A stretch of 64,000 nucleotides of DNA from Promethearchaeati archaeon (GTDB lineage Archaea; Asgardarchaeota; Heimdallarchaeia; Heimdallarchaeales; Heimdallarchaeaceae), in NCBI GenBank assembly GCA_013166775.1, contig JABLTJ010000003.1, forward strand, positions 1-64,000, given 5' to 3'. A program made the translations under genes and the position numbers. Below the pieces are notes generated by a model. It saw nothing but the letters and a program-made list of their open reading frames with translations, was not told the origin of the DNA and did no database searches. Positions 42,952 through 58,092 of the stretch are shown here, piece after piece (position 1 is the first letter of the stretch; each line of letters starts with the position of its first letter).

Positions 42952-43364
42952 AGTATTAGTTTAGAATATTTATCTACTACTTCAAGATACATTTCATTAC
43001 ATTTTTCTTCAGATAATTCCATTATCCCTTTTTCCATTCTTGCTGAAATTCTACTTACTAGTTCTTTCAGTTTATCTCGAAATTCAATAATTGGAAGAGT
43101 ATAGTACAAATATTTGTAACCACCTCTTTCTAGACTGGTCTTTTCTTTTTTTACAGCTCCAACATCCATTAATCTTTGAATTGATCTAACAATTGATGCT
43201 CTGTCTTTTCTGATTATTTCAGTGATTCCTTTAACATCTACTGGTTTGTTATGATTAATACATGCAAGTACTTCCAATTCATTTTCAGACAGTCCAAAAA
43301 GAGCTCTAACTATATCAAAGCAAGTTATGTCATCAGAATCAAAAGAAGAAAGAGGGAATGACAT
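42948..43364 (-). CDS. Archaeal winged-HTH transcriptional regulator (TrmB-like / COG3355-type)
   Basis: FGLSENE...KDRASIVRSIQRL..G.V.K...GGYKYLY; last gene of the sulfur-relay operon; contains three Cys. Confidence 0.8.
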   Translation of the reverse strand: MSFPLSSFDSDDITCFDIVRALFGLSENELEVLACINHNKPVDVKGITEIIRKDRASIVRSIQRLMDVGAVKKEKTSLERGGYKYLYYTLPIIEFRDKLKELVSRISARMEKGIMELSEEKCNEMYLEVVDKYSKLIL

Positions 43365-43375
43365 TTTTTTCACCT

Positions 43376-43750
43376 CTAGAAAGTATATACAACATCAGCT
43401 TCGAGGGATTCAGTTACTAAGAACATTCCTCCGACTATATCGTCAACTTCCTCAATGAAATCTTCACGTTTTAAATTATACATCTCAAGTACTGGACTGC
43501 AGACGTAAATTTTAGCACCTACTTCTTTAGCTTCACGTAAAGTTTCAATGTAGGGATTCTTGCCTTCCATTGGAATTAAGTTTTCAGGAACTCCTTTCTT
43601 AAGTAGTAATCCAGCTGACATAGTATAAATAATTGTTACTTCTGCATCAAGCATAGCTGCTAGTGATGCAAGATGTAAGGGGGGCTCAAGTCTTTCTTTG
43701 AATTCCTTTCCATGAGTTAATACGAAAACTATTTTCTGTTCAGGCATCAT
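43376..43750 (-). CDS. DsrE/DsrF-like sulfur-relay protein
   Basis: FVLTHG, AAMLDAEV, GAKIYVCS conserved Cys, ADVVYTF. Confidence 0.82.
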   Translation of the reverse strand: MMPEQKIVFVLTHGKEFKERLEPPLHLASLAAMLDAEVTIIYTMSAGLLLKKGVPENLIPMEGKNPYIETLREAKEVGAKIYVCSPVLEMYNLKREDFIEEVDDIVGGMFLVTESLEADVVYTF

Positions 43751-43756
43751 TACCAC

Positions 43757-44230
43757 CTAGAAGTATAATGTGATATCTGCTTCTGATGCAAATTCTAAGA
43801 AGGTTGCAGCTCCACCAACTTCACATTCATCAATCAGCTGCTTTCTTTTGATTTTCATTACATCCATTGTCATTTGACAAGCAATGAGCTTTACACCAGA
43901 TTCAATAGAAATGTCCATCAATTCTTGTAATTTTGCAACATTAGCACCTTTCATCCAGCTTTTCATCATTGCTGTTGCCATATCAGTCATACCAGGAATC
44001 ATTCCTACAATTTGTGGTATTGGCATTGGCATAGCTGTTTGACCTACGGGAGTTACTTTGAGTTTGTTTAGTTTTTTCTTCTTCAACATATTTAATCCAA
44101 AGAATGTGAAGAATATACCTACTTCATAATCCATTGCTGCTGCAGTAGTGGCTAAGATTAATGGTGGGTATGCACCAGCAATATCTGCTTTTGAAGCTAT
44201 CATAGCTATTCGTTTTTTCTTTTCCGACAT
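43757..44230 (-). CDS. DsrE2 (DsrE/DsrF/DrsH-like) sulfurtransferase
   Basis: YPPLILATTAAAM, FFTFFGL, GVKLIACQMTMDVM, GAATFL. Confidence 0.88.
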   Translation of the reverse strand: MSEKKKRIAMIASKADIAGAYPPLILATTAAAMDYEVGIFFTFFGLNMLKKKKLNKLKVTPVGQTAMPMPIPQIVGMIPGMTDMATAMMKSWMKGANVAKLQELMDISIESGVKLIACQMTMDVMKIKRKQLIDECEVGGAATFLEFASEADITLYF

Positions 44231-44239
44231 TTTTTTCAC

Positions 44240-44479
44240 CTATTTAATTCTTTTAATGATATAGCGGTATACTCCGCCTTCTTCCGAGTTAGCAATAAGT
44301 TCATTTCCGGTAGATCTGGTCCATGCTTGGAAATCCGCAACTGATCCAGGATCTGTTGAGAAAACTTCAATATGCTCCCCTAATGAAATTTCCATAATTG
44401 CTTTCTTTGTTTTAAGGATTGGAAGAGGACAGCTTAACCCCTTTGCATTAAGAGTTTTAGCAATTTTTGTATCACTCAT
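44240..44479 (-). CDS. tusA: TusA/SirA sulfur carrier
   Basis: GLSCPLP motif, TDPGS..DF.AW. Confidence 0.92.
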   Translation of the reverse strand: MSDTKIAKTLNAKGLSCPLPILKTKKAIMEISLGEHIEVFSTDPGSVADFQAWTRSTGNELIANSEEGGVYRYIIKRIK

Positions 44480-44490
44480 TTTTTTCACCT

Positions 44491-45636
44491 TTATAATCGT
44501 CCTTTAATCAAGAATTTGAAATAAGCAAATTTGAACGCCTTCTTGAATAATCCAAACAAAAGAGTTGAATTTAATCCGTATTTTTTTGGAGGGTAGTTAT
44601 AACTGAAATGCAATAACATAGATTTTTTGAAGGATGTTAATATGAAACAGATTGTTAATCCCTTGTATTTAGCTTTGGGAGGTTTCCCTTTAAGTTCTGA
44701 AATTAAGTTTTTCACTAAAATATTAGAAGAGAAGTGCGAAACAGTTCCAGATTTTGAAACTGGTAAATTTGTTCCATCTCCGATTGCATAGATGTTGTCA
44801 TGTTCGTTGTGTTTCATTGTATATCTATCAGTAGTAATCCATCCTTCTCTATCACCCAATCCAGAGTCTTTTATGACATCTTGACCTTCATGAGGAGGTA
44901 TTATTATAAGACTTTCATATCCTATTTCTTCTCCTTCAAGAGATAGTACTTTGTTGTTTTCATTATCAATTGTTTCGAAATTGAAAAATGGAGTGAACTT
45001 GATGTTTCTTTTAGCAAAAAGTTTCTCTACTTTCTTAGCAGGTTCAGCCATTGTGAAAGCTCTTGATAATGGATAGAGAAATCTGATTGTTGATTTGTGT
45101 CTTATTCCTCTCTTACGTAGGTATTTATCTAATAAAAATGCGAATTCAATTGGAGTAGGTGGGCATTTGTAAGGTACGGTTGTCGGAGTAATAACAATAG
45201 TTCCTCCATCAAACTCCATAAGTTTTTCTTTTAGATGTTCAACTCCATCTTTGGTATAAAATTCGCAAACATTATCAGTTTGACAATATGCATCAAGTTT
45301 CTCTTGTGCCATTCTTGCTCCTGTTGCTAAGATAAGAAAATCGTATAGGATATTTTTCCCATTTTCTATTGTTACTATGTTTTTTTCAGGGTCTATCTTT
45401 GTAGCAATGTTTTTAATCCAGTTTACTTCTTTACTCAGTAATTTAGAAATTGGCTTTAAGAGATTAGAAATTGGTTTATCTTGAAAAACCCAAAATAAGT
45501 ACTCTGGTTCATAGATATTTTCTTCCTTTGGCTCAATCAAAGTGATTTTGACTTTTTTTCTATTTATTTTACGTGCTAAATGATTAGCTGTAGCTAAACC
45601 AGAAAAACCTCCACCTATTATAACTATATTTTTCAT
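44491..45636 (-). CDS. Sulfide:quinone oxidoreductase-like FAD-dependent oxidoreductase
   Basis: IIGGGFSG, YDFLILATG, YKCPPTPIE, YAIGD, SKSG, Y.G...CF; both redox cysteines are present. Confidence 0.8.
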   Translation of the reverse strand: MKNIVIIGGGFSGLATANHLARKINRKKVKITLIEPKEENIYEPEYLFWVFQDKPISNLLKPISKLLSKEVNWIKNIATKIDPEKNIVTIENGKNILYDFLILATGARMAQEKLDAYCQTDNVCEFYTKDGVEHLKEKLMEFDGGTIVITPTTVPYKCPPTPIEFAFLLDKYLRKRGIRHKSTIRFLYPLSRAFTMAEPAKKVEKLFAKRNIKFTPFFNFETIDNENNKVLSLEGEEIGYESLIIIPPHEGQDVIKDSGLGDREGWITTDRYTMKHNEHDNIYAIGDGTNLPVSKSGTVSHFSSNILVKNLISELKGKPPKAKYKGLTICFILTSFKKSMLLHFSYNYPPKKYGLNSTLLFGLFKKAFKFAYFKFLIKGRL

Positions 45637-45646
45637 TTTAGTTCCT

Positions 45647-45886
45647 TCAGTGTAGTTTTTTTACAATATAACGATCGAAACCGTCTTCATTGATTAGTGC
45701 AGTTAATTCATGTTTTGCTTTATCAACCCAAGCGGGAACATCTACTCTTGTTCCCTCATCAGAGCTTAGCAAAGCAATGAATTCTCCAACTTCTGCTTGA
45801 CGTATTGCTTTAATCAGTTCCATCATTGGTCCTGGGCAAAACGCCCCTCTTGCATCTACTTCTATAGCTATTTCATAATCAGTCAT
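45647..45886 (-). CDS. tusA: TusA/SirA sulfur carrier (second copy)
   Basis: DARGAFCPGP motif, SSDEG...DVPAW. Confidence 0.9.
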   Translation of the reverse strand: MTDYEIAIEVDARGAFCPGPMMELIKAIRQAEVGEFIALLSSDEGTRVDVPAWVDKAKHELTALINEDGFDRYIVKKLH

Positions 45887-46901: not shown

Positions 46902-47594
46902 ATGATAGCAGTATGGATTAGTTTAATAGTTACTGCCATCTTGGTAGCTGGCTCAATTTCTTTACGTATTATTTCTAAAGAGGGAGAGGAAGGAAGAATC
47001 ATCAGACCTAATGAGAAATTATCTGATGAATTCATGGAGGATTTAGCGCTAGTACCTGGTGGTGATAAAATAAAAGAATGCATACAATGTGGCATTTGTT
47101 CTGCTAGTTGCCCTGTTTCTTTTGCTATGGATTATACTCCTAGACAAATATGGGAACTTCTGAGATCTGGGCAATTAAAAAAAGCACTAAATAGTCACAC
47201 TGTATGGTTGTGCTCTTCTTGTTACAAATGTGCTGTAAGATGTTCGACTGGCATCCCCTTTACTGACGTAATGTATGGATTAAAGCGCTTAGGTAAAGAG
47301 AAGAAATTGAATCAAAAGGGTATAAGTGGACCAATCTGGGCAAGTACTTTTCTTAACAATGTTCGTCGTTATGATCGAATCACTGATTTATTTGTAATGA
47401 TTATGTTTATGGTTAAGAAACAACCCTTCAGAATACTTTCAATCATTCCAGAATCTTGGGGAATGTTCACTAAAGGACGAGTTCCGTTTAAGAATCTCAT
47501 GATGCTTGTTCCTAAAACAATCAAATCTTTTTTCACTAAGAGCGATGTCAAGAAGATGATGAAATGGATAGATAAAAACGTGGAGATTAGTTAA
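46902..47594 (+). CDS. hdrC: Heterodisulfide reductase subunit C with N-terminal TM helix
   Basis: CIQCGICSASCP, MDYTPRQ, WLCSSCYKCAVRC; hydrophobic residues ~2-24. Confidence 0.9.
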   Translation: MIAVWISLIVTAILVAGSISLRIISKEGEEGRIIRPNEKLSDEFMEDLALVPGGDKIKECIQCGICSASCPVSFAMDYTPRQIWELLRSGQLKKALNSHTVWLCSSCYKCAVRCSTGIPFTDVMYGLKRLGKEKKLNQKGISGPIWASTFLNNVRRYDRITDLFVMIMFMVKKQPFRILSIIPESWGMFTKGRVPFKNLMMLVPKTIKSFFTKSDVKKMMKWIDKNVEIS

Positions 47595-48491
47595 ATGACT
47601 GAAGTAGAAAAAAAGGGAGGATATACTTACTTTCCCGGATGTGCTCTAGAAGGAATTCAAGAACCTTACAAAAAATCTACAGAAGCAGTTGCTAAAGAAT
47701 TAGGGATTGTCTTAAACGAGCTTAAATCATGGAACTGTTGTGGAACTCCCTCCATCATTGGTGTAGATGAGATTAAGGCTCTAGCTTTGTCTGCTAGAAA
47801 TCTTGCCTTAGCAGCAAAAGAAGGAGATCAAATTGTAAGTCCCTGTAACACTTGTTTTGGTACTCTGAAAAAAGTGAATAGATACATGGAATATAATAAA
47901 GAAATTTACTCTGCAATAAACGGTTCCCTGAATGCTGCGGGATTATCTTATGAACCTAACACTGTAGAAGTAAGACATTTTGTAGATATCTTAGTAAATG
48001 ATTATGGAATAGAAGAGATTAGGAAAAGAGTCAAAAGACCTCTTACAGGTTTCCGTGTAGTTCCATTTTATGGATGTCATTTTTCTAGACCTTTTGGTGA
48101 ACATGATGATGTAGAAAATCCAAGAAAAATGGATGATTTAATCAAAATTTCTGGAGCAGAATGGGTAGATTATCCAATGAAATTTACCTGTTGCGGAGCT
48201 ACTCTTCCAGTAACTGATCCAAAGATTGGTTATCGACTTATACATGAGATTCTCAGATCAGCGAAGGAAGTAAAAGCTGATTTCATAATTACATCGTGTC
48301 CTCTCTGTCAAACTAACTTAGAAATGTTTCAGAGAGTAGCAGGAAATATGTATGGTGGCAAGCACCACATTCCTGTTTTATATGTTACTCAATTAGTTGG
48401 ATATGCACTTGGGCTTTCAGTAAAGGAACTGATGATAGATAAAACTCTGGTCAAGCCAAAAAGACTTATTGAAAAAAGTGAGGTGGTCTAA
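47595..48491 (+). CDS. hdrB: Heterodisulfide reductase subunit B
   Basis: Two CCG domains: YFPGC...WNCCG...PCNTC and FYGC...TCCG...CPLCQ.NLE. Confidence 0.93.
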   Translation: MTEVEKKGGYTYFPGCALEGIQEPYKKSTEAVAKELGIVLNELKSWNCCGTPSIIGVDEIKALALSARNLALAAKEGDQIVSPCNTCFGTLKKVNRYMEYNKEIYSAINGSLNAAGLSYEPNTVEVRHFVDILVNDYGIEEIRKRVKRPLTGFRVVPFYGCHFSRPFGEHDDVENPRKMDDLIKISGAEWVDYPMKFTCCGATLPVTDPKIGYRLIHEILRSAKEVKADFIITSCPLCQTNLEMFQRVAGNMYGGKHHIPVLYVTQLVGYALGLSVKELMIDKTLVKPKRLIEKSEVV

Positions 48492-49774
48492 TGACATCTG
48501 AAGCAGATCCAAGAATTGGAGTATTTGTGTGTAAATGTGGAAAAAACATTGCAGCAAAAGTCGCAGTTAATGAAGTAGCAGAATATGCAAAAACATTAGA
48601 TAATGTAGAGTTTAGTCAAGTAAATACTTTTACCTGTTCAGCAGTAGGACAAAATGCTATCAAGGATGCCGTAAAGGAACACAATCTAGATAGAGTAGTT
48701 GTAGCGAGTTGCTCACCTACTATGCACGAAAGCACTTTTCAAGCTGCTACTGAAGAAGCTGGAATAAATAGATATCAATTCCAAATGGCAAACATAAGAG
48801 AATTCTCTTCATGGGTTACCAAAGATCCAGCTGAAGCTACAAGCAAAGCTAAGAGAATAGTAACAGGTGCCGTAAGAAGAGTCGCATTTCATGAACCACT
48901 TGAAGAAGTAATCGTTCCAGTTAATCCAAATACGTTAGTCATTGGTGGTGGAATCGCAGGAATTTCTGCTGCATTAAAAATTGCAGATGCTGGCCATAAA
49001 GTTATCTTAGTAGAAAAAGAACCTTCTATAGGTGGAAGGATGGCTCAACTAGATAAAACTTTTCCAACATTGGATTGTGCAGCATGTATTCTATCACCTC
49101 GAATGGTAGATGTTGGAAAGCATCCAAACATAGAGATGATGGCTTATTCTGAAGTCGTAGCTGTTGATGGTTACATAGGAAATTTCAATGCTAAAATAAA
49201 GAACAAAGCTAAGTCAGTAGATGAAGAAAAGTGTACTAGTTGTGGAGATTGTTGGGAAAACTGTCCCGTTAGATATACTGCTTATACAGAACCAGCAAAA
49301 ATAGTTCCTGCATTGCTTTATGATGAGAAAACCTTCTTAGATAAAATCATAACCAAGTACAAAGATAGACGAGGAGCTATTATGCCAGTTCTTGAGGCAA
49401 TTAATAGTGAATACCGTTATCTTCCTGAAGAGAGCTTGAAATATGTTGCAGTACAAATGGATTATCCTCTCAGTTCTATTTATAGAATTGCTACATTCTA
49501 CAATGCATACAGCTTAGAACCAAGAGGAGATCATCTGATAAGCGTCTGTATGGGAACAACATGTCATGTTAAAGGAGCTCCAAGGCTTGTTGAAAGGCTA
49601 AAGAGCGAGTTGAAAATTGATATTGGTGAGACTACAGATGACGGTAAATTTACTTTAGAAACAGTTCGATGTTTGGGCTGTTGTAGCTTAGCTCCGGTGA
49701 TAACGATAGATGGTGAAGCTTTCGGTAATATGAAACCGAGTAGAATTCCAAGGGTGCTTGATAAATATGAGTGA
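48491..49774 (+). CDS. hdrA: HdrA N-terminal half fused to a NuoE/HydC [2Fe-2S] domain
   Basis: RIGVFVCKCG.NI, ASCSP, ANIRE, IGGGIAG, IGGRMAQLDKTFPTLDCAACIL, CTSCGDCWENCPV; then ATFY..Y..EPRG, VCMGTTCHVKG, CLGCCSLAP. Confidence 0.9.
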   Translation: MTSEADPRIGVFVCKCGKNIAAKVAVNEVAEYAKTLDNVEFSQVNTFTCSAVGQNAIKDAVKEHNLDRVVVASCSPTMHESTFQAATEEAGINRYQFQMANIREFSSWVTKDPAEATSKAKRIVTGAVRRVAFHEPLEEVIVPVNPNTLVIGGGIAGISAALKIADAGHKVILVEKEPSIGGRMAQLDKTFPTLDCAACILSPRMVDVGKHPNIEMMAYSEVVAVDGYIGNFNAKIKNKAKSVDEEKCTSCGDCWENCPVRYTAYTEPAKIVPALLYDEKTFLDKIITKYKDRRGAIMPVLEAINSEYRYLPEESLKYVAVQMDYPLSSIYRIATFYNAYSLEPRGDHLISVCMGTTCHVKGAPRLVERLKSELKIDIGETTDDGKFTLETVRCLGCCSLAPVITIDGEAFGNMKPSRIPRVLDKYE

Positions 49775-51674
49775 TATAAAACCAGCTGATATTAATATTC
49801 TGAGAGCTAAGGGAGAAGAATCTCTTTATCCAGATAGACCTAAAATTGGAATTAGCATGGCTTCATGCGGATTAGCTGCTGGTGCTGGGAAAATTTTGGA
49901 AACAATTGAAGGAGAATTGAAGAACCTAGATCTTGATTGGATTGTTACAAAAACAGGATGTCCTGGTTTTTGCCAAAAAGAACCTCTATTATATTATCAT
50001 GCACCTGGAAAAGAGAAAATTTACTTCGGTGAATTAACGGAGAAGAAAGCAAAAGATTTAGTCAAAGAGTTATCCGAAAATACAGTAGATAGAGATTTTG
50101 CTACATGGAAAATTATGTCTGATGTTACAATTGATGATAAGACATTGTTCATTAGTGAAGAAACAGAAATCGAAGATATTCCATTATACCAAGAATATGA
50201 TTTTTTTAAAAAACAACATAAAATTGCTCTTAGAAACTGTGGTTTCATTGATCCTCAAAGTATAGAGGAATATATCGCAAAAGGAGGGTATGCAGCTTTC
50301 CAAAAAGCTTTGAAAATGAAACCAGACGAGGTTATTGATTTCATTAAGAAATCAGGACTACGTGGAAGAGGTGGAGGAGGATTCCCTACGGGATTAAAGT
50401 GGGAACTCTGTTCCAAAGAAGATTCAGATATTAAGTATATTATCTGTAACGCAGATGAAGGAGATCCTGGAGCATATATGGATAGAAGTATACTTGAGGG
50501 TGATCCTCACTCTATAATCGAAGGGATGCTGATTGGTGCCTATGGTATCGGATCTAATGAAGGCTATATCTATGTAAGAGCTGAATATCCATTAGCAATA
50601 GAATTGCTAGATATTGCAGTTCAACAAGCTCGTGAAAATGGTTTTCTTGGAGCAAATATCCTCAATTCAGGTTTTAGTTTTGATATTAATCTTGCATATG
50701 GAGCAGGTGCTTTTGTTTGTGGTGAAGAGACAGCTCTAATAGCATCAATAGAAGGTAGACCAGTTGAACCAAGAATAAGACCTCCCTTTCCATCACAATC
50801 AGGTTTATGGGAGAAACCTACCAACATTAACAATGTAGAAACTTGGGCTAATGTACCCCCAATTATTCTGAAAGGACATGATTGGTATTCCTCTTTAGGA
50901 ACAGAAACAAGTAAGGGAACAAAAGTATTTTCTCTAGTTGGTAAAATTAACAACACAGGACTAGTGGAAGTTCCTATGGGAATTACTTTGCGAGAAATCA
51001 TCTACGATGTAGGTGGAGGTATAATCGATAATAAGAAATTCAAAGCTATTCAAACAGGTGGTCCATCAGGTGGATGCCTTCCTGAAAGCCATATTGATCT
51101 ACCAGTGGATTATGAGAGTCTCAAGGAAGCTGGGTCTATAATGGGGTCAGGAGGAATGATTGTTGTTGATGAAGACACTTGCATTGTGGACCTTGCGAAA
51201 TTCTTTATAGATTTTACTAGAGATGAATCTTGTGGTAAATGTGTTTCTTGTCGTGATGGATTAGATGCATGTCACGAAATTCTGAATAAAATAACTGAAG
51301 GAAAATCTGCTTTAGAAGACCTAGATTACTTAGAAGAGCTTGGACAATCAATTGTTGATTTCTCAATGTGCGGTTTAGGAACCACAGCTCCAAATCCTGT
51401 TCTGACAACTCTACGATATTTCAAAGATGAATATATAGCTCATATCGAGAAAAAAGAATGCTCAGCTAAAGTTTGCAAAGCGTTAATTACCTATGAAATA
51501 ATCAAAGATAATTGTGTTGGATGCCAGGCATGTGCTAGACTTTGTCCAGAAAATGCAATAAAAGGGCAGAAAGATAAAGTCCACAAGATTAACCAAGAAC
51601 TCTGTATAAAATGCGGAGTCTGTTTTGATACGTGTAGATACGATGCAATTCTAATAAGGAGTGGTGATAAATAA
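49767..51674 (+). CDS. HydB/NuoF-type FMN/NAD-binding subunit with C-terminal 2x[4Fe-4S]
   Basis: SGLRGRGGGGFPTG, CNADEGDPGAYMDR, GAFVCGEETAL, GGPSGG, ESCGKCVSCR..C, and two C-terminal CxxCxxCxxxC motifs. Confidence 0.92.
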   Translation: MSDIKPADINILRAKGEESLYPDRPKIGISMASCGLAAGAGKILETIEGELKNLDLDWIVTKTGCPGFCQKEPLLYYHAPGKEKIYFGELTEKKAKDLVKELSENTVDRDFATWKIMSDVTIDDKTLFISEETEIEDIPLYQEYDFFKKQHKIALRNCGFIDPQSIEEYIAKGGYAAFQKALKMKPDEVIDFIKKSGLRGRGGGGFPTGLKWELCSKEDSDIKYIICNADEGDPGAYMDRSILEGDPHSIIEGMLIGAYGIGSNEGYIYVRAEYPLAIELLDIAVQQARENGFLGANILNSGFSFDINLAYGAGAFVCGEETALIASIEGRPVEPRIRPPFPSQSGLWEKPTNINNVETWANVPPIILKGHDWYSSLGTETSKGTKVFSLVGKINNTGLVEVPMGITLREIIYDVGGGIIDNKKFKAIQTGGPSGGCLPESHIDLPVDYESLKEAGSIMGSGGMIVVDEDTCIVDLAKFFIDFTRDESCGKCVSCRDGLDACHEILNKITEGKSALEDLDYLEELGQSIVDFSMCGLGTTAPNPVLTTLRYFKDEYIAHIEKKECSAKVCKALITYEIIKDNCVGCQACARLCPENAIKGQKDKVHKINQELCIKCGVCFDTCRYDAILIRSGDK

Positions 51675-53449
51675 TGGTGAATATAACTATAAACGATCAA
51701 GAATATGATATTGAAGAAGGAAAAACAATTCTTGAAGCTGCTCAAGCAATGGGATTGGAAATACCGACTCTGTGCTATCATAAAGCTCTTAGTCCGTATG
51801 GTGCTTGTCGTCTATGTACTGTAGAAATTGAACTCAACGGAAGAACAATGTATCAAGCTTCATGCCAATATCTCGTTGAAGAAGGTATGAACATTCAAAC
51901 TGAGAGTGAACGAGTTGTTAATGGCCGTAAGAAGATGATTGAACTTCTTCTAGCAAGAGCTCCGGAAGCAGAAGATATTTTGGATCTTGCTTATAAATAT
52001 GGTGTCAAAGATACAAGATTCTTAAAGGAATTTGATGACGTCTGTATTTTATGTGGTCTTTGTATTCGTGTCTGTCATGATAGAATGGGTTTCAAAGCTA
52101 TTGAATTCATTAACCGTGGAATCGAAAGAAAAGTCAGCCTACCCTTTGAAGATTTCCATGAAGTTTGCAGAACTTGTGGTTCCTGTTCAACATACTGCCC
52201 AACAGGTGCTAAAGCAGTGCAACTAGAAAATCTCACACATCATACTCCAAGACCAATATTATCAGAATTTGATCAAGGATTAGCAACTAGACCAGCAGTT
52301 TATACACCATTTCCACAGGCTGTACCAAAAATCCCAGTAATTGACAGAAATAATTGCATACACTTCCAGACTGGTGAATGTAAGATTTGTCAAGATGTAT
52401 GTGAACCTGATGCTATAAATTATGAACAAGAAGATGAAATTGTAGAAAGGGAAGTAGGAGCAATCGTCGTTACTACAGGTTTTGATCCTTTTGATCCTAA
52501 CAGACTACCTCAATATGGTTATGGAAAATATCCTAATGTAATAACTTCATTAGAATTTGAGAGAATCTCAAGTGCAAGTGGTCCAACAGAAGGTGAAATC
52601 ATTTTCCCAGGAGTTACTGAAATAAAAAGTGCTGCAATTCTCCATTGTATAGGTAGTAGAGATGAAAACACAAACAGATACTGTTCCAGACTCTGTTGTA
52701 TGAATGCCCTCAAAGCTGCGAATCTTATAAGAGATAAATTACCAGATTCTCATGTTTATGAATTTTATATAGACATTAGAGCTGCAGGTAAAGGGTATGA
52801 GGAATATTATCAAAAGATGCTTAGAAGTGATATACGAATTATAAGAGGAAAAGTAGCTGAAATCACCAACATTCCAGATTTGCCTGAAGATGAAGGACGG
52901 TTAACTGTAGTAGCAGAAGACACTCTTCTTGGAGCAATTTTGAGAGTACCAGTTGATCTTGTGATTCTAATGGTTGGTATTGAACCCAAAAAAGATGCTA
53001 GAGATTTAGCCCATATACTCCATTTACCATGTACTGAAGAAGGATTCTATAATGAAAAGCATCCAAAGCTAGCACCAACTGAAACTGTTATAGAAGGAAT
53101 CCATGTAGCTGGTGCATGTCAATTTCCAAAGGATGTACCTGATTCTGTAGCGCAAGGAGAATCTGCTGCAGCTGCTGTTCTTTCAAAGATTGCAAGAGGA
53201 GAATATATTACGGAACCAACGAAAGCTGAAATAGTGGACGATCATTGTTCTGGATGTAGAAACTGTATAGGATTATGCCCCTATTTGGCAATAAGCTTTG
53301 ATGAGGAAGAGGAAATTGCAAAGATAGATTCAGCTCTTTGCCAAGGATGTGGAGTCTGTGTAGCCAGTTGTCCATCTGGAGCAATAATTCACAGAGGTTA
53401 TACTGACAAACAGATCTTTGCGGAAATTGAAGGAGTACTAGAAAGGTGA
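51674..53449 (+). CDS. hdrA: NuoG/HydA-type Fe-S domain fused to HdrA C-terminal half
   Basis: IPTLC..GACRLC..SC, CILCGLCIRVC, CRTCGSCSTYCP; then EFDQGL..R.AVY.PFPQAVP, LEFER, HCIGSRD, YCSRLCCMNALK, DIRA.GKGYEEYY, E.HPKL, GACQFPKD, and a C-terminal ferredoxin. Confidence 0.9.
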   Translation: MVNITINDQEYDIEEGKTILEAAQAMGLEIPTLCYHKALSPYGACRLCTVEIELNGRTMYQASCQYLVEEGMNIQTESERVVNGRKKMIELLLARAPEAEDILDLAYKYGVKDTRFLKEFDDVCILCGLCIRVCHDRMGFKAIEFINRGIERKVSLPFEDFHEVCRTCGSCSTYCPTGAKAVQLENLTHHTPRPILSEFDQGLATRPAVYTPFPQAVPKIPVIDRNNCIHFQTGECKICQDVCEPDAINYEQEDEIVEREVGAIVVTTGFDPFDPNRLPQYGYGKYPNVITSLEFERISSASGPTEGEIIFPGVTEIKSAAILHCIGSRDENTNRYCSRLCCMNALKAANLIRDKLPDSHVYEFYIDIRAAGKGYEEYYQKMLRSDIRIIRGKVAEITNIPDLPEDEGRLTVVAEDTLLGAILRVPVDLVILMVGIEPKKDARDLAHILHLPCTEEGFYNEKHPKLAPTETVIEGIHVAGACQFPKDVPDSVAQGESAAAAVLSKIARGEYITEPTKAEIVDDHCSGCRNCIGLCPYLAISFDEEEEIAKIDSALCQGCGVCVASCPSGAIIHRGYTDKQIFAEIEGVLER

Positions 53450-53454
53450 TGAAA

Positions 53455-53931
53455 ATGGTAGTAACAGATGAAAAAACTATTGAAAATACTGATTGGGAAC
53501 CGAGGATTGTAGGATTCTTATGCCGGTGGTGTTCATATGCTGGTGCAGATCTTGCAGGTATAAGTAGACTAGATTACCCACCAAATTCCATCTTTATTAA
53601 AGTACCTTGCACAGGACGTGTCGATCCTACTTTCGTATTGAAAGCTTTTGCTGATGGAGCTGATGCAGTATTCATATCTGGATGCCATCTAGGCGATTGT
53701 CATTATATCGAAGGAAATTACAAAACTATGCGACGATTTGAAATACTCAAAGAAACACTAAAGCAATTGGGTATACATGAGAGAAGGTTTCAACTGACAT
53801 GGATATCAGCATCTGAAGCCCAGAAATTAAAAGAATTTCTCACAAGTATGACATCTTCAATAAAAGAATTAGGACCTATACAATTGCCGATTTTAGCACC
53901 TTTACAAAAGGAGGATAAACAAGATGACTGA
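53455..53931 (+). CDS. mvhD: MvhD [2Fe-2S] adaptor subunit
   Basis: CRWCSYAGADLAG, VPCTGRVD, GCHLGDCHY, WISASE. Confidence 0.94.
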   Translation: MVVTDEKTIENTDWEPRIVGFLCRWCSYAGADLAGISRLDYPPNSIFIKVPCTGRVDPTFVLKAFADGADAVFISGCHLGDCHYIEGNYKTMRRFEILKETLKQLGIHERRFQLTWISASEAQKLKEFLTSMTSSIKELGPIQLPILAPLQKEDKQDD

Positions 53932-54880
53932 GAAACTCAAACTAGCCTTCTATTGGGCAGCGAGTTGTGGTGGCTGTGAAGTAGCTATCTTGGATATTGA
54001 TGAAAAAGTCCTTGATGTAGTAGCAATCGCTGATATTGTGTTCTGGCCAGTAGCCATTGATATTAAATACAATGATGTAAGAGCTATGGACGACAAAAGC
54101 ATTGATGTCACCTTCTTTAATGGTTCGATAAGAACTGAAGAGAATGCTGAACTAGCTCGATTATTGAGAGCAAAATCAAAAACATTGGTTGCATTTGGTT
54201 CCTGTTCTTGCTATGGTGGAGTTATAGGTTTAGGAAATCTTTCCTCTAAAGAGGAGTTGTTACATCGAGCCTATATTACAAGTGATTCAACTGATAATCC
54301 TGAGCAGATAAAACCTCAGCTTCATTACAAGGAAGTTCATATTCCTGATGTTCTACCAGCTAATTATGCTTTGGATCAGGTTGTAGATGTTGATTATTAC
54401 TTACCAGGATGTCCACCAAAAGATACACTAGTTTGGAGTGCTATAGAAGCCATTGCTTCTGGAAATCTTCCTGCTAAGGGTGCTGTTTTAGCTCCCAATC
54501 TTACTGTATGCCATGATTGTCCTCGAGAGAAACATGATGAACGAACAATTAAGGAATTCAAAAGAGTTTATAACTTCCAACCTGATGAAACAAAATGTCT
54601 TCTGGAACAAGGTTTAATCTGTATGGGACCTGCTACACGTTCAGGTTGCGATGCTTCTTGTGTTTCTGTAAATATGCCATGTCGAGGTTGTATGGGACCA
54701 ACAGATCAAGTATTTGACCAAGGAGCTAAGATGATTTCCGTGTTAGGAGGACTAATAGATTCTGATGATCCTGAAGAAGTTAAAGAAATAGTTAGTACTA
54801 TAGTTGATCCAGTTGGAACTTTATACTATTTTGGAGTATCCAAGTCTCTAATTAAGCAAAGTGGTGTTAAAAGGAGGTAA
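53924..54880 (+). CDS. mvhG: [NiFe]-hydrogenase small subunit, group 3c
   Basis: ASCGGCE, FGSC..YGG, PGCPP, VCHDCPR, CLLEQG..CMGPAT..GC...C...NMPCRGC. Confidence 0.93.
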   Translation: MTEKLKLAFYWAASCGGCEVAILDIDEKVLDVVAIADIVFWPVAIDIKYNDVRAMDDKSIDVTFFNGSIRTEENAELARLLRAKSKTLVAFGSCSCYGGVIGLGNLSSKEELLHRAYITSDSTDNPEQIKPQLHYKEVHIPDVLPANYALDQVVDVDYYLPGCPPKDTLVWSAIEAIASGNLPAKGAVLAPNLTVCHDCPREKHDERTIKEFKRVYNFQPDETKCLLEQGLICMGPATRSGCDASCVSVNMPCRGCMGPTDQVFDQGAKMISVLGGLIDSDDPEEVKEIVSTIVDPVGTLYYFGVSKSLIKQSGVKRR

Positions 54881-54884
54881 AATA

Positions 54885-56339
54885 ATGACAGAAAAAACAG
54901 TAAAACATATTGTTATTGATCCAGTAACTCGTCTAGAAGGGCATGCCAAAATTGACATTATTCTAGATGATAAAGGAAAGATAGAAGATGTATACTTACA
55001 AGTACCAGAATTCAGAGGATTTGAAAAATTCTGTGAAGGTAGAAGAGTGGAAGAGCTTCCAAGAATAACACCAAAAATCTGTGGTGTTTGTCCTATGGCA
55101 CATCATATGGCATCTGCAAAAGCGTTAGATATGGCATTTGGGGTTGAACCAACATCAGTTGCTCATAAACTTAGAGAGCTTATGTACAATGCCTATGTAT
55201 TTGAGGATCATACACTTGCCTTCTATTTCCTACAAGCTCCAGATTTTGTAGTTGGTCCATCAGCACCTCCAGCTGAGAGGAATATTCTAGGAGTTATAGC
55301 TAAAGTAGGTGTAGATATTGGAAAGGAAGTCATAAAACATCGAGCTTATGGACAACAAATGTTACAGATTCTTACTGGAAGTAAAATCTTTCCAGCAGTT
55401 GCAATTCCAGGTGGAGTTAGCAAAGGATTATCCGAAGAAGACAGAGACAAAATGATACCTTGGGCTGAGAGTTGTGTTGAGTTTTCAAAATTTACACAAC
55501 AGTTATTGCATGATGTAGTTCTCGAAAACAAAGATTATGTAGACTTGATTCTCTCTGATACATACAATCTGAAAGCATATAATATGGGACTAGTTGATGA
55601 GAATAACAAAATCAACTTCTATGATGGACAAATTAGAGTTACATCTCCTGAAGATAAGGAATTTGTAAAATTTGAATCCAAAGATTATCTAGAACACGTT
55701 GCTGAAGTACCAATCCCACATAGTTATGTCAAACGAACTTATCTCAAGAAATTAGGTTTGGAAAATGGATTATATCGAGCTGGACCTCTAGCAAGATTGA
55801 ATGCATCAGAAGGTATGACTACACCTTTAGCACAAAAAGAATACGAGAAATTCTATAGTGTTTTAGGAGGAAAACCAGCAAATCAAACCCTAGCTTACAA
55901 TTGGGCACGCGTAATTGAACAGCTCTATGCTGCTGAAAGAGTTCTTGAATTATTGAATGATCCAGAAATTACAAGTGATGATTTCAGAACCTTAGCAACA
56001 GAAGTACCAACTGAAGGAGTCGGTGTAGTTGAAGCATGCAGAGGAACACTTTATCATCATTACAAATGTGATGAGAAAGGATTGGCTAAGGAGGTAAACC
56101 TAATTGTGGCTACAACTAATAATAAATTTGCATTAGAGAAATCAGTCGAAAAAGCTGCTAGAGGTTTAATAGAATCAGAGCAACCAGATCAAGGAATACT
56201 GAATATGGTAGAAATGTCATTCAGAGCTTATGATCCTTGTATGGCTTGTGCAACACATTCTCTGCCAGGAAAAATGCCATTGACTATCAATCTTTATGAT
56301 AAGAACAAAAATCTTTTACGTAAAATTCAAAGGAAATAA
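54885..56339 (+). CDS. mvhA: [NiFe]-hydrogenase large subunit, group 3c
   Basis: TRLEGH, RGFEKF, L1 KICGVC, L2 RAYDPCMACATH followed by a C-terminal extension. Confidence 0.94.
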   Translation: MTEKTVKHIVIDPVTRLEGHAKIDIILDDKGKIEDVYLQVPEFRGFEKFCEGRRVEELPRITPKICGVCPMAHHMASAKALDMAFGVEPTSVAHKLRELMYNAYVFEDHTLAFYFLQAPDFVVGPSAPPAERNILGVIAKVGVDIGKEVIKHRAYGQQMLQILTGSKIFPAVAIPGGVSKGLSEEDRDKMIPWAESCVEFSKFTQQLLHDVVLENKDYVDLILSDTYNLKAYNMGLVDENNKINFYDGQIRVTSPEDKEFVKFESKDYLEHVAEVPIPHSYVKRTYLKKLGLENGLYRAGPLARLNASEGMTTPLAQKEYEKFYSVLGGKPANQTLAYNWARVIEQLYAAERVLELLNDPEITSDDFRTLATEVPTEGVGVVEACRGTLYHHYKCDEKGLAKEVNLIVATTNNKFALEKSVEKAARGLIESEQPDQGILNMVEMSFRAYDPCMACATHSLPGKMPLTINLYDKNKNLLRKIQRK

Positions 56340-56424: not shown

Positions 56425-58092
56425 ATGAAAGTAAGAAGGTTTCTGAAGACTTTACTCTTATTAGTATTGATTCTTAATCTGAGATCAGTTAATACAATAC
56501 TATCCAATGCAGGAATTGTAAAGGAACAGAATAATTCTTCTTATATCTGGTTATGGGAAGAATTGTATGGAGCTCCAAGTAATATTCCTGGAGAAGACGT
56601 TGTTTTCTGGGGAGAGAGCTTAGGACCTTATCATAATTATACTGAAATGGTAAACAAACTAGTGTCATTAAACGAAAGTTTCCCAGAGATTGTTGATTTG
56701 TTCTCACTTGGCAAGACATGGAGAGGAAACGAAATATGGTGTGTAAAATTAACAAATGAAACAATTACAACTGCAAAATCTGAATACTACATTGTAGGTA
56801 ATCATCATGCACGCGAATTAATCTCTGTAGAAAACTCCCTCTACTTTCTAGATAGAATTATTTATGAGACACAATTTGGTAATTTCACTAATCTTCTTTC
56901 TAACAAGGAACTATATGTTATACCTATGTTAAATCCTGATGGTTTATCAATTATACACACTTTTCCAGAACAAAGAAAAAATCTTCGTGAAATTGATGAC
57001 GATGAGGATGGCACGGTTATTGATGAGTATGAGATTGTATATTTTTGGAATACTACATCAAATACCTCTGAAAAGATAGAAATAGACCTTGATGGAGATT
57101 CCTTTCAAGGAGAGGATTTACCAGGAGGTGTAGATTTAAATCGAAATTATCTTGCTTTTTGGGATGTTTCAGGTGGGTCATCCCCTGTAAAGGTAGAATC
57201 AACTTATCGTGGAGAAGCTCCATTCAGTGAGAATGAAACGCAGATAATTAGGAATTTCATGCGAGGACATTTCTTTAACTTAGCAGTGAGTCTTCATAGT
57301 GGGATCCAAGCAATTATTTCTCCTTGGGGGTATAATAGTTCATATCCTATCGCTGATGGTGATGAATTTCAAGCTCTTCTTTCAGAATTAAAAAGCATTA
57401 CACTTTTACCACTCTGGGAAGAAATTCCTGGAAATTATAATGCTTCAGGAACCTGGGATGATTATTGTTACTTGTATCATGATATTATGTGTTTCACACT
57501 AGAAACATATGGTGCTTTTCCATCGGGTTCATTTTTTGATGATTACAATCCTTCTGGTGATCAAATCATAGCAAATTGTGAAATGGTTTTCCCAGCTTTA
57601 ACTTATTTGGCAATGGAACCTCAGCTCACATACTCAAATACACCTCCATCTCTTGATGTTACAAATCCATCAAGAGAGAATCAAGTGTTTGATAATTATA
57701 CTATTAGATGGTCTATGAATGATATTGAAGAAGATTCTCTAAACTGTTCAGTACTTGTTTCTAGAAATGGTTGGAATTGGACAGTATTAGCTTCAAATAT
57801 TATTGGAAGTACATCCATATTCTGGGATGTCACAGATGTTACTCCAGGGTCATATTATTTGAAAGTTGCAGTTTCAGATGGAGAAAACTGGATTTTTGAT
57901 GTAAGTGATATAAAGCTAAATGTAAAAAAAGAACCACCCAAATCCAGAGCTTCTTTCTGGATTTTAGCTGTTTTTATAGGAACTTCTGCTGTTGTGTATC
58001 TATTCTTCTATATCAGAAAAACAAAAAAGATAGGAAAAGATTGGGAACCTGATTCATATAAAGAATCTCAAGCAGAAAAAAAGAAAAAATAA
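56425..58092 (+). CDS. Secreted, membrane-anchored M14 zinc carboxypeptidase
   Basis: Signal peptide, HHARE, NPDG, GVDLNRNY, SENET, LHS, TLE; Ig-like domain and C-terminal TM. Confidence 0.88.
   Translation: MKVRRFLKTLLLLVLILNLRSVNTILSNAGIVKEQNNSSYIWLWEELYGAPSNIPGEDVVFWGESLGPYHNYTEMVNKLVSLNESFPEIVDLFSLGKTWRGNEIWCVKLTNETITTAKSEYYIVGNHHARELISVENSLYFLDRIIYETQFGNFTNLLSNKELYVIPMLNPDGLSIIHTFPEQRKNLREIDDDEDGTVIDEYEIVYFWNTTSNTSEKIEIDLDGDSFQGEDLPGGVDLNRNYLAFWDVSGGSSPVKVESTYRGEAPFSENETQIIRNFMRGHFFNLAVSLHSGIQAIISPWGYNSSYPIADGDEFQALLSELKSITLLPLWEEIPGNYNASGTWDDYCYLYHDIMCFTLETYGAFPSGSFFDDYNPSGDQIIANCEMVFPALTYLAMEPQLTYSNTPPSLDVTNPSRENQVFDNYTIRWSMNDIEEDSLNCSVLVSRNGWNWTVLASNIIGSTSIFWDVTDVTPGSYYLKVAVSDGENWIFDVSDIKLNVKKEPPKSRASFWILAVFIGTSAVVYLFFYIRKTKKIGKDWEPDSYKESQAEKKKK

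Follow-up and report, generated by a model that had tools for sequence, protein, structure and literature searches.

Gene content and integrity of the locus

The window is a 64,000-nucleotide stretch of contig JABLTJ010000003.1 (assembly GCA_013166775.1), from an archaeon of the Heimdallarchaeaceae. On its plus strand, the ORF list and Pfam matches reveal an hdr/bfu/mvh operon at 46902–56339, whose eight ORFs overlap by 1–20 nt and run in the order HdrC, HdrB, HdrA 1–260 plus BfuC/NuoE, BfuB/NuoF, a short BfuA/NuoG head plus HdrA 257–650, MvhD, MvhG and MvhA (Table 1). The three central ORFs, P0001 (48491–49774), P0002 (49758–51674) and P0003 (51674–53449), have coupled starts and contain neither a frameshift nor an internal stop. 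All the elements that an initial annotation of this DNA had placed here were found at those positions.

Table 1. Features of the hdr/bfu/mvh operon (window coordinates)
Feature	Position	Strand	Basis and remarks
HdrC, two [4Fe-4S]	46902..47594	+	Pfam Fer4_8 7e-12; first gene of the operon
HdrB, two CCG domains, disulfide-reducing subunit	47595..48491	+	Pfam CCG 1.5e-29, two stretches
HdrA N-terminal half, P0001 residues 1–260	48491..49270	+	aligns with 5odc_A 3–259
Linker of ~20 residues, then BfuC/HydC/NuoE-type thioredoxin-like [2Fe-2S] domain, in frame with the HdrA N-half	49271..49774	+	Pfam 2Fe-2S_thioredx 1.3e-49, residues 284–426
BfuB/HydB: N-terminal [2Fe-2S], FMN/NAD(H) site, [4Fe-4S], C-terminal 2x[4Fe-4S]	49758..51674	+	end to end with 9n5u_B, 7t2r_B
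Short (Type 2) BfuA head: [2Fe-2S] A1 and two [4Fe-4S] (A2, A4)	51674..52228	+	Pfam Fer2_4 4.7e-20
Linker, then HdrA C-terminal half (EFDQGL at 52265)	52229..53449	+	aligns with 5odc_A 257–650
MvhD, [2Fe-2S] adaptor	53446..53931	+	Pfam FlpD 4.5e-52
MvhG, [NiFe]-hydrogenase small subunit	53924..54880	+	Pfam Oxidored_q6 6e-24
MvhA, [NiFe]-hydrogenase large subunit	54861..56339	+	7t2r_D 1.6e-120, 5odc_F 6.4e-114

The arrangement is reproduced in independent assemblies. In each of two sequencing runs a single Logan contig spans 48400–53500 with 0 differences. For a third run the same interval is made up of two Logan contigs, again with 0 differences, each crossing one of the two junctions. A separate cold-seep study contributes a 4681-bp contig that covers 49139–53500 without gaps at about 90% identity. 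A chimeric assembly, which the initial annotation had named among the findings that would undo its reading, is excluded, as four runs from two studies yield contigs across both junctions.

The hydrogenase is of group 3c (Mvh). The MvhA alignment displays ICGVCPMAH and AYDPCMACATH, which match the L1 and L2 motifs as quoted in PMC6085437, and MvhG and MvhD are encoded beside the Hdr genes.

HdrA is split inside its inserted ferredoxin domain

In place of one continuous HdrA of ~650 aa, the operon contains two ORFs with the 1.9 kb bfuB between them. P0001 residues 6–261 align with residues 3–259 of Methanothermococcus thermolithotrophicus HdrA (5odc_A, E 5e-90) and P0003 residues 192–589 with residues 257–650 (5odc_A, 3e-106; also 8rvu_a 271–653, 7e-110); the halves are about 50% identical to methanogen HdrA and all cluster and FAD motifs are present. 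P0001 carries the N-terminal 4-Cys [4Fe-4S] domain (residues 6–130 align with 5odc_A), whose C.CG.NI motif occurs in 120/120 relatives compared, and the first Cys motif of the inserted ferredoxin domain (CTSCGDCWENCPV, residues 248–260, nt 49232–49270, as initially annotated), whose four cysteines are likewise kept in 120/120 relatives. P0003 supplies the conserved second Cys motif of this domain (residues 228–243, nt 52355–52402), the remaining FAD fold with its Cys-rich cluster site, and the C-terminal ferredoxin domain. Because the two 4-Cys motifs of the inserted ferredoxin domain lie on separate chains, the domain could be completed only in trans. The thioredoxin-reductase-like FAD fold is also spread over both polypeptides, with GxGxxG and the DC..CI cysteine in P0001 and GSRD...CS..CC and the C-terminal FAD motif in P0003. 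The initial proposal that HdrA is interrupted within the inserted ferredoxin domain is thus borne out: the break falls exactly inside it, the boundaries match the solved HdrA exactly and every cofactor ligand is retained across the two halves. Elsewhere the genome encodes two canonical HdrA proteins of 650 and 655 aa.

A natural single-chain relative (HdrA_N, BfuA head, HdrA_C) offers a view of how such an insert might be accommodated. Its predicted model superposes on 5odc_A with a Z score of 41.2 and an rmsd of 3.3 Å (639/653 residues), and low confidence is confined chiefly to the two linkers. The model supports the idea that the insert is compatible with a canonical HdrA fold around it.

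The insert is a bifurcation-type Bfu module

Between the HdrA halves the initial annotation had recognized a NuoEFG/HydCBA module, and alignment to HydABC-type chains supports its identification as a full bifurcation-type BfuCBA set. P0001 residues 283–427 align with HydC/NuoE chains (7t2r_C, 5.6e-41), providing the BfuC [2Fe-2S] subunit. P0002 matches bifurcating BfuB/HydB chains from end to end (9n5u_B, 6.8e-232; 7t2r_B, 4.4e-228), and this alignment together with Pfam accounts for clusters B1–B5 and the FMN/NAD(H) site; an alternative start at ATG 49767 is possible. Aligned against the residue list of PMC9304861, P0002 keeps the bifurcation-type residues T513 and DPGAYMD and, at the B2/Zn site, C475, H562, C568 and C573; the His and Cys of the B2/Zn site, together with A202 and M204 (A. 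mobile BfuB), are absent from non-bifurcating homologues (PMC9304861). P0003 residues 4–179 align with the short BfuA of WorABCSL (9mqx_A, WorA; 2.9e-35) and include A1 and A2, while the entry cluster A4 lies 21 residues ahead of the HdrA junction. As A3 and A5 are missing, the window BfuA is of Type 2; neither a His-ligated cluster nor a catalytic domain was found in the BfuA head by Pfam or in the 9mqx_A alignment.

A conserved break and an apparent same-genus cassette swap

What is the distribution of the split? The initial annotation suggested a search for HdrA-NuoE fusions. In a survey of 80 loci fetched from species-representative genomes, 49 carry the junction between the HdrA N-half and BfuC, in at least 15 phyla, and each of the two fusion proteins forms at least 120 clusters. 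Over a range of 50–90% identity and at least 15 phyla the break point does not move and no ligand is lost. Further Heimdallarchaeaceae have the same operon, as do Promethearchaeota, Planctomycetota, Armatimonadota and Chloroflexota. Conservation of the layout across lineages, together with the open reading frames, argues against gene decay, as the initial annotation had maintained. Variants exist. In some lineages the HdrA N-half (273–275 aa) and BfuC are separate genes with the position of the break unchanged, and there are also gene clusters in which an unsplit tandem HdrA-MvhD is followed by BfuC, BfuB and a short BfuA.

A genome of the same genus, G151, has at the syntenic locus an unsplit 1125-aa HdrA with an NfnB/GltD-like insert, and the flanks are 78–82% identical to those of the window. 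This insert sits in the same HdrA domain as the window's Bfu module, ~35 residues farther downstream; Pfam finds no NfnB/GltD-like FAD/NAD(P)H domain in the window proteins. The presence of a Bfu or an NfnB-like module at one and the same locus looks, from sequence comparison, like a cassette swap.

A proposed Hdr-Bfu-Mvh complex

Based on these observations, we propose that the eight genes encode one soluble MvhAGD-HdrABC-BfuABC complex in which Bfu is tethered to the low-potential outlet of HdrA. We hold this model with moderate confidence, and its assembly, wiring, direction and thiol substrate are all inferred. The two HdrA chains would reassemble into a normal HdrA fold, so that both [4Fe-4S] clusters of the inserted ferredoxin domain would each be ligated by cysteines from both chains. 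The Bfu module, with its FMN, NAD(H) site and ferredoxin site, would be tethered by linkers of ~20 residues to both sides of the break, and hence its A4-A2-A1 chain would extend the arm that normally feeds free ferredoxin. In the H2-oxidizing direction, electrons would pass from H2 to MvhAG and through MvhD to the HdrA FAD, where the pair would be split: one electron may reach a disulfide or persulfide by way of HdrC and HdrB, and the other may enter BfuA from the inserted ferredoxin domain, after which the BfuBC core would divide electrons between NAD+ and ferredoxin. Reverse operation of the chain is also possible. The initial annotation had likewise envisaged an HdrA rebuilt from two polypeptides, with the NAD module wired in at the low-potential exit. 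This interpretation gains from the split, the completeness of Bfu, the conservation of the layout, the canonical fold modelled for the single-chain relative and the position of the fusion points at the low-potential outlet; H2, NAD(H), ferredoxin and a disulfide are probably tied into one enzyme.

Several observations touch on this scheme. In its favour, no other NuoF/BfuB homologue was found in the genome (88.7% complete), and neither Rnf nor an [FeFe]-hydrogenase was found there. Low-potential electrons leave through the inserted ferredoxin domain both in the solved Hdr complexes and in the class II benzoyl-CoA reductase (BCRII) (bioRxiv 10.64898/2026.04.10.717634). In the BCRII structure the BfuA homologue lies against the N-terminal helical bundle of the BfuC homologue (same preprint), a contact that brings the Bfu tether points close in space, as insertion into one HdrA loop requires. 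Against it, linkers of 20 residues leave the inter-cluster distances free, in BCRII, the characterized HdrA plus Bfu enzyme, Bfu feeds the input side of HdrA by way of the C-terminal ferredoxin domain and an MvhD-like adaptor rather than the inserted domain, and delivering very low-potential electrons into a Bfu entry at roughly -400 mV would waste energy relative to canonical Mvh-Hdr.

A more specific version of the model is tentative, and we rate it below even chances. Two bifurcation centres would operate in series through the low-potential arm of HdrA, the first passing electrons from H2 via the HdrA FAD to disulfide and Bfu and the second from Bfu to NAD+ and ferredoxin, while the inserted ferredoxin domain would act as a socket exchanging NAD(P)H modules, Bfu or NfnB-like, between close genomes. 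If true, the series wiring would be opposite to the confurcation-then-bifurcation of BCRII, and would permit H2 oxidation at lower partial pressure with NADH and reduced ferredoxin still being made.

Could the system instead be a [NiFe] counterpart of confurcating HydABC? NADH and reduced ferredoxin would then be combined in BfuBC, and electrons would run on via BfuA, the HdrA clusters, the FAD (a wire instead of a bifurcation site) and MvhD to H2 production at the [NiFe] site; HdrBC would be a side branch with the role of regulator or alternative sink. Every gene arrangement has HdrA, Bfu and MvhD in common, usually together with MvhAG, and HdrBC is absent from the fetched stretch in many relatives whose HdrA N-part is truncated, so that not all members have the disulfide branch. 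CBS/HATPase, DRTGG and PHP/HATPase genes are typical of HydABC operons, and in a Sedimentisphaerales locus such genes lie between bfuB and the bfuA-hdrA fusion. Among solved structures, MvhA finds its best relative in the large subunit of the NiFe-Bfu hydrogenase from A. mobile, and the reconstructions published for Asgard archaea expect fermentation with H2 evolution. One clade of Cloacimonadota has the FeFe A3 (Hnd) hydrogenase and the other 'MvhADG-HdrABC' (PMC12590816), and the Cloacimonadota loci that we fetched carry the Bfu insertion. However, the window and 12/18 loci whose HdrA N-half is full-length encode both HdrB and HdrC. The window HdrB matches methanogen HdrB over its whole length (8rvu_b, 1.7e-50) with its CCG-domain cysteine motifs visible, and all elements of a bifurcating-type HdrA are retained. 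We therefore regard this explanation as unlikely, albeit one to be taken seriously.

A wiring like that of BCRII is less probable still, and we assign it little weight. Bfu would confurcate NADH and reduced ferredoxin and so give the HdrA FAD a mid-potential donor in addition to H2; bifurcation at the FAD would then serve the disulfide on one side and, on the other, a low-potential acceptor such as free ferredoxin. This arrangement has experimental support in Bam[(BC)2DEFGHI]2, and the clusters with unsplit tandem HdrA-MvhD followed by Bfu genes would suit it. In the window, however, MvhD and MvhAG already take up the input side, the fusions place Bfu on the inserted ferredoxin domain, an output in Hdr and BCRII alike, and it would be futile to spend reduced ferredoxin on reducing ferredoxin again. 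Lastly, misassembly or a broken, decaying hdrA, considered because split genes are often pseudogenes, is refuted by the contigs across both junctions, the open frames and a break conserved in at least 15 phyla; nothing was found in its favour, and its likelihood is negligible.

Comparison with known systems

The operon shares all six subunit types and the usual hdrCBA-mvhDGA order with MvhAGD-HdrABC (PDB 5ODC, 8RVU; group 3c), but its HdrA consists of two polypeptides, with BfuCBA encoded in the gap and fused to both halves. The location of BfuCBA between the HdrA halves makes NAD(H) a likely substrate of the window system. We know of no CoM/CoB metabolism in this lineage. HdrL-type HdrA proteins, such as Desulfobacterium autotrophicum HdrL, have an inserted NfnB/GltD/SudA-like NAD(P)H domain, and so likewise place a nucleotide-linked flavoprotein module within the inserted ferredoxin domain; their insert is a single domain in one polypeptide, whereas the window carries Bfu worth three genes and a physically split HdrA.

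With the BfuABC family the window has the full BfuB/BfuC cofactor set in common. Among Type 2 BfuABC members with a short BfuA (WorABCSL, PDB 9MQX; PMC9304861, PMC12318220), WorA also has only A1, A2 and A4, and NiFe-HydABCSL of Acetomicrobium mobile (PDB 7T2R) resembles the window in having a [NiFe] hydrogenase as its H2 site. Unlike in that family, the window's BfuA and BfuC are fused to HdrA halves, and BfuA would be fed by an entire HdrABC-MvhD unit in place of a simple catalytic subunit; compared with NiFe-Bfu, the hydrogenase would be linked via MvhD and HdrA, not cluster A3. The Bfu types listed in PMC9304861 do not include the HdrABC-MvhD-Bfu combination.

The only characterized enzyme that joins HdrA-type and Bfu-type modules in series is BCRII, Bam[(BC)2DEFGHI]2 of Geobacter metallireducens, for which structure and enzymology are available (bioRxiv 10.64898/2026.04.10.717634). 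The novelty expected by the initial annotation accordingly does not extend to the pairing of HdrA and Bfu; for the split architecture, no published description was found in the literature. BCRII shares with the window an MvhD-like adaptor and an HdrBC-like subunit in addition to the two modules; no aldehyde:ferredoxin oxidoreductase Pfam match indicative of the tungsten-pterin BamB/BamC was found among the operon's eight ORFs. The BCRII modules are separate subunits and BamE is an unsplit tandem HdrA, while in the window HdrA is split and fused. In BCRII, Bfu delivers to the HdrA input side (the C-terminal ferredoxin domain, then BamF), and the tungsten enzyme receives its electrons from the inserted ferredoxin domain; in the window the hydrogenase occupies the input side and Bfu is attached at the inserted ferredoxin domain. 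What is new here is the apparent same-genus cassette swap and a single-chain relative that models as a canonical HdrA fold around its insert.

A single cut in HdrA filled by a Bfu module

The window contains eight genes that run in the same direction over 46902-56339 and overlap by 1-20 nt (ORF calls), with identities assigned by Pfam and PDB sequence searches (see table). The first fusion protein, P0001, aligns without interruption to Methanothermococcus HdrA (5odc_A; residues 6-261 on 3-259, 5e-90) until directly past motif 1, the first Cys motif of the HdrA inserted ferredoxin domain (C248-C258, P259, V260; nt 49232-49270). A linker of about 20 residues leads from there into a HydC/NuoE domain (residues 283-427), the in-frame passage that the initial annotation had described. 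P0002 is a full-length BfuB/HydB, matching the complete HydB/NuoF gene that the initial annotation had placed between the halves. P0003 opens with a short BfuA head (residues 4-179) and, after a 21-residue linker, resumes HdrA at residue 257 and follows it to residue 650 (residues 192-589, 3e-106), so that a NuoG/HydA domain does run into the rest of HdrA. Both halves thus match 5odc_A in the domain mapping and alignment that the initial annotation had proposed, and together the alignments define a single cut point in HdrA: nothing is missing or duplicated, the gap holds a bfuCBA set and both ends are in frame.

Genes of the split HdrA/Bfu operon and its neighbours in the window
Feature	Position	Description
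Divergent six-gene set	42948-45886	minus strand, upstream of the hdr-mvh operon
HdrC	46902-47594	
HdrB	47595-48491	
P0001	48491-49774	HdrA N-half fused to BfuC
P0002	49758-51674	BfuB
P0003	51674-53449	BfuA head fused to HdrA C-half
MvhD	53446-53931	
MvhG	53924-54880	
MvhA	54861-56339	
M14 zinc carboxypeptidase	56425-58092	next gene after mvhA; Pfam 1.8e-45

The gene order is not an assembly artefact. One-piece Logan contigs from two marine-sediment runs span 48400-53500 with zero differences to the window, and in a third run two zero-difference pieces cover the same interval, each crossing one junction. The window assembly may derive from these three runs. A cold-seep run from a separate study is independent of it and yields a 4681-bp contig over 49139-53500 with 433 substitutions and no gaps. 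Both junctions are crossed by the contigs of the three identical runs and by the cold-seep contig, and this check on per-run Logan contigs, akin to the read mapping suggested in the initial annotation, revealed no chimera at either. None of the runs listed as containing the stretch is an RNA run.

The known HdrA cofactor sites are divided between the two chains. The N-half carries the N-terminal 4-Cys site, GxGxxG, the DC..CI cysteine and motif 1, while the C-half carries motif 2 (C228-x7-C236-x2-C239-x3-C243 in P0003), the GSRD...CS..CC site, the C-terminal FAD motif and the C-terminal 2x[4Fe-4S] domain (alignment). In the 2x[4Fe-4S] ferredoxin fold, every cluster is held by three Cys of one motif and one of the other; both clusters of the inserted domain therefore need Cys of both chains and must be built by P0001 and P0003 jointly. 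Motif 1 is intact in all 120 P0001-like proteins and motif 2 in each of the 26 P0003-like proteins aligned. The C-x7-C spacing seen in motif 2 was considered as a mark of the split family and discarded, as the canonical HdrAs of the same genome have it too.

How well does the fold tolerate an insert at this point? P0021 (L003:4787-7438; 883 aa) is a natural single chain of HdrA_N, BfuA head and HdrA_C with no bfuB or bfuC near it in its locus. A model of this 54-57% identical relative, rather than of the window's own pair, was built on 82 sequences (pLDDT 82, pTM 0.75); confidence falls below 50 chiefly in linkers 261-288 and 489-498 and in one loop, 176-190. Superposition on 5odc_A gives Z 41.2 and an rmsd of 3.3 A, with 639 of its 653 residues matched (model residues 3-883), which indicates that in the predicted fold of this relative the HdrA break site accepts a 230-residue insert with both halves canonical. 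P0079 (870 aa) is a second single chain of the same composition, and the two may be deletion products of the split form. The neighbourhood of P0021 includes a 215-aa MvhD/MvhA-fragment fusion and a sensory [FeFe]-hydrogenase-like histidine kinase.

Module type and genomic context

The alignments of P0002 to NfnB (9n5u_B) and to A. mobile NiFe-HydB (7t2r_B) run from end to end, N-terminal [2Fe-2S] and C-terminal ferredoxin domains included. Compared with the residue list of PMC9304861 for bifurcation-type residues, it has the B2/Zn-site ligands C475, H562, C568 and C573, T513 at a site occupied by Thr in about two thirds of BfuBs, and the DPGAYMD signature. Judged by these residues, the Bfu module of the window is assigned to the bifurcating kind. 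The BfuA head of P0003 is nearest to WorA of WorABCSL (9mqx_A, 2.9e-35), and both lack the His-ligated cluster. In WorABCSL cluster A4 is the electron entry (PMC12318220); in P0003 the A4 motif, C165-C175, is the final element ahead of the HdrA junction.

The genome (3.85 Mb, 88.7% complete, 4.5% contaminated) also encodes two canonical unsplit HdrAs of 650 and 655 aa (C76:37123-49477; L005, L006), so canonical and Bfu-split Hdr systems coexist. One of the two genes adjoins another [NiFe] large-subunit gene; the genome has four such large-subunit genes in all. Searching this 88.7% complete genome found no NuoF/BfuB besides P0002, no [FeFe]-hydrogenase and no Rnf. With no second NuoF-type NAD(H) module and no Rnf found, the split system may be what chiefly connects the NAD(H), ferredoxin and H2 pools of this organism.

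The divergent set upstream encodes a TrmB/MarR-type regulator, DsrE, a DsrE2-type protein, TusA, an SQR/FCSD-like flavoprotein (381 aa) and a further TusA (Pfam), and resembles a sulfur-relay operon. ORFs that match the regulator, DsrE and DsrE2 genes in size and order are also present at the corresponding locus of G151, a genome of the same genus; none of the three lies beside the operon of another Heimdall MAG (L030). For this reason we treat a persulfide as HdrB substrate as a lead only.

Distribution and an apparent cassette swap

Split HdrA proteins are widespread. The genome search for HdrA-NuoE fusions suggested in the initial annotation found the HdrA_N-BfuC junction in at least 49 of 80 fetched loci of species-representative genomes, covering at least 15 phyla; these counts, from a scan with a single peptide pattern, are lower bounds, and the carriers among the matches listed are MAGs or SAGs. 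P0003-like proteins (585-604 aa, 99-100% coverage, about 50-55% identity, rising to 77-92% in Heimdallarchaeaceae) make up all of the best 120 clusters matching P0003, and P0001-like fusions likewise all of the best 120 matching P0001. Other named carriers of P0003-like proteins are Promethearchaeota, Phycisphaerae/Planctomycetota, Armatimonadota, Dehalococcoidia, Eremiobacterota and Neomarinimicrobiota. With clustering at 50% identity, a query spanning the junction gave about 28 representatives. The genes occur in several arrangements (see table).

Gene arrangements of HdrA and Bfu
Type	Arrangement	Carriers
I	hdrC-hdrB-[HdrA_N::BfuC]-bfuB-[BfuA::HdrA_C]-mvhDGA	window, other Heimdall, Planctomycetota, Chloroflexota and others
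I variant	HdrA_N (273-275 aa) and BfuC as two genes	L028, L029
II	tandem HdrA, Bfu in its first unit	Acidobacteriota and others
III	~4 kb between HdrA_N and BfuC	Terriglobia
IV	unsplit tandem HdrA-MvhD, then bfuCBA (Bam-like)	L076, L077, L081, L085, L088, L090-L092

The Dehalococcoidia locus L028 (MAG GCA_011191875) joins the split HdrA/Bfu genes and HdrCB to a second, plain NuoG/NuoE/NuoF set and has two methylene-tetrahydrofolate reductase genes in place of Mvh; the split unit seems to be reused with various partner modules. In a Sedimentisphaerales locus (L001:5110-7997), bfuB is separated from the bfuA-hdrA fusion by ~3 kb of genes that look regulatory (CBS/HATPase, DRTGG, PHP/HATPase); bfuB is followed by a similarly sized gap in several other bacterial loci and in none of the Heimdall loci, the window included. 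Bacterial versions of the operon have a HycI-type maturation protease after mvhA, where the window instead has the M14 zinc carboxypeptidase.

In Asgard genomes the layout is rare and patchy: among 300 sampled genomes of the phylum, full-length matches to P0003 occur only in that of the window, G154 and G160, the others matching its HdrA part only. In a quick tree with midpoint root only, 23 bacterial Type I members group together (SH-aLRT 94) and the Asgard sequences fall outside them in two separate clades, so the window version was not recently imported from a sampled bacterium. A second Asgard operon type, in a Promethearchaeota MAG (L027, GCA_048938655) and in G154 (L025), has the order NfnA/PyrK-like gene, HdrL-type or canonical HdrA, split HdrA/Bfu genes, MvhD. 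The HdrA_N::BfuC gene of L027 (5840-7106) is absent from gene calls; it proved to be intact and simply uncalled, not interrupted by selenocysteine.

The most informative new result is an apparent cassette swap within the genus. At the syntenic locus of G151, which shares flanking genes with the window, hdrC-hdrB and mvhDGA enclose one unsplit hdrA of 1125 aa (L024:7047-10424). The protein shares 78% identity with P0001 (its residues 3-261 on 2-260) and 82% with P0003 (its residues 769-1123 on 235-589), MvhG and MvhA being 91% identical between the two genomes. The middle of this HdrA is an NfnB/GltD-like module (Fer4_20 and Pyr_redox_2, Pfam). From CPV to the second Cys of motif 2, the identity between the window and G151 drops to 53% (30 aligned residues), compared with 78% between the window and the Bfu-bearing L030; the boundaries of the swapped unit therefore lie just past motif 1 and within motif 2. 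It would be more parsimonious for G151 to have replaced Bfu, because the window and the more distant L030 both have Bfu.

A model for electron flow

What would a Bfu module do inside HdrA? We infer the function of the split complex from sequence, conservation and analogy. Covalent tethers to both HdrA halves, a break point that is conserved and an NfnB-like module as the alternative insert all point to an NAD(P)H module wired at the HdrA inserted ferredoxin domain, the low-potential outlet of Hdr complexes and of class II benzoyl-CoA reductase (BCRII, Bam-Bfu; bioRxiv 10.64898/2026.04.10.717634). The BfuC homologue of BCRII contacts the BfuA homologue through its N-terminal bundle (same preprint), so the Bfu tether points would be adjacent and insertion at one loop is sterically sensible.

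Our preferred reading is serial bifurcation, at the HdrA FAD and then at Bfu. Electrons from H2 would reach the HdrA FAD by way of MvhAGD; the high-potential one would leave via HdrCB to a disulfide or persulfide, and the low-potential one would travel from the inserted domain through A4-A2-A1 to BfuBC, reducing NAD+ and ferredoxin. With potentials of -414 mV for H2, -140 mV for heterodisulfide, about -280 mV for NAD and about -500 mV for ferredoxin (PMC9304861), the mean acceptor potential would, by rough calculation, be ~-265 mV versus ~-320 mV in canonical Mvh-Hdr. With serial bifurcation, oxidation of H2 would then stay favourable when H2 pressure is lower, the price being a smaller yield of reduced ferredoxin. 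As the main rival we see a [NiFe] hydrogenase dependent on NADH and ferredoxin in which HdrA is a wire; it accords with the varying presence of HdrBC among loci and with the fermentative lifestyles inferred for many carriers. BCRII-like wiring, with Bfu on the HdrA input side, is less likely, that side being already occupied by Mvh.

If NAD(H) is a substrate, hydrogen and redox-balance models of Asgard archaea, Cloacimonadota and other groups need revising, and syntrophy arguments on eukaryogenesis are likewise affected. Mvh-Hdr operons of Cloacimonadota and Asgard archaea are filed in the literature as ordinary MvhADG-HdrABC (Cloacimonadota: PMC12590816). The component families of the split operon are already known; a Bfu-HdrA coupling was proposed in 2022 (PMC9304861) and demonstrated for BCRII in a 2026 preprint (bioRxiv 10.64898/2026.04.10.717634). 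We found no account in the literature of an HdrA split by bfuCBA, nor of its combination with Mvh, a mention in a review being possible. The fusions provide a natural marker for the Bfu attachment site on HdrA. The complex would be a widespread, uncharacterised member of both the Hdr and the Bfu families and the second natural enzyme to join two electron-bifurcating modules, wired unlike BCRII, the first to be solved.
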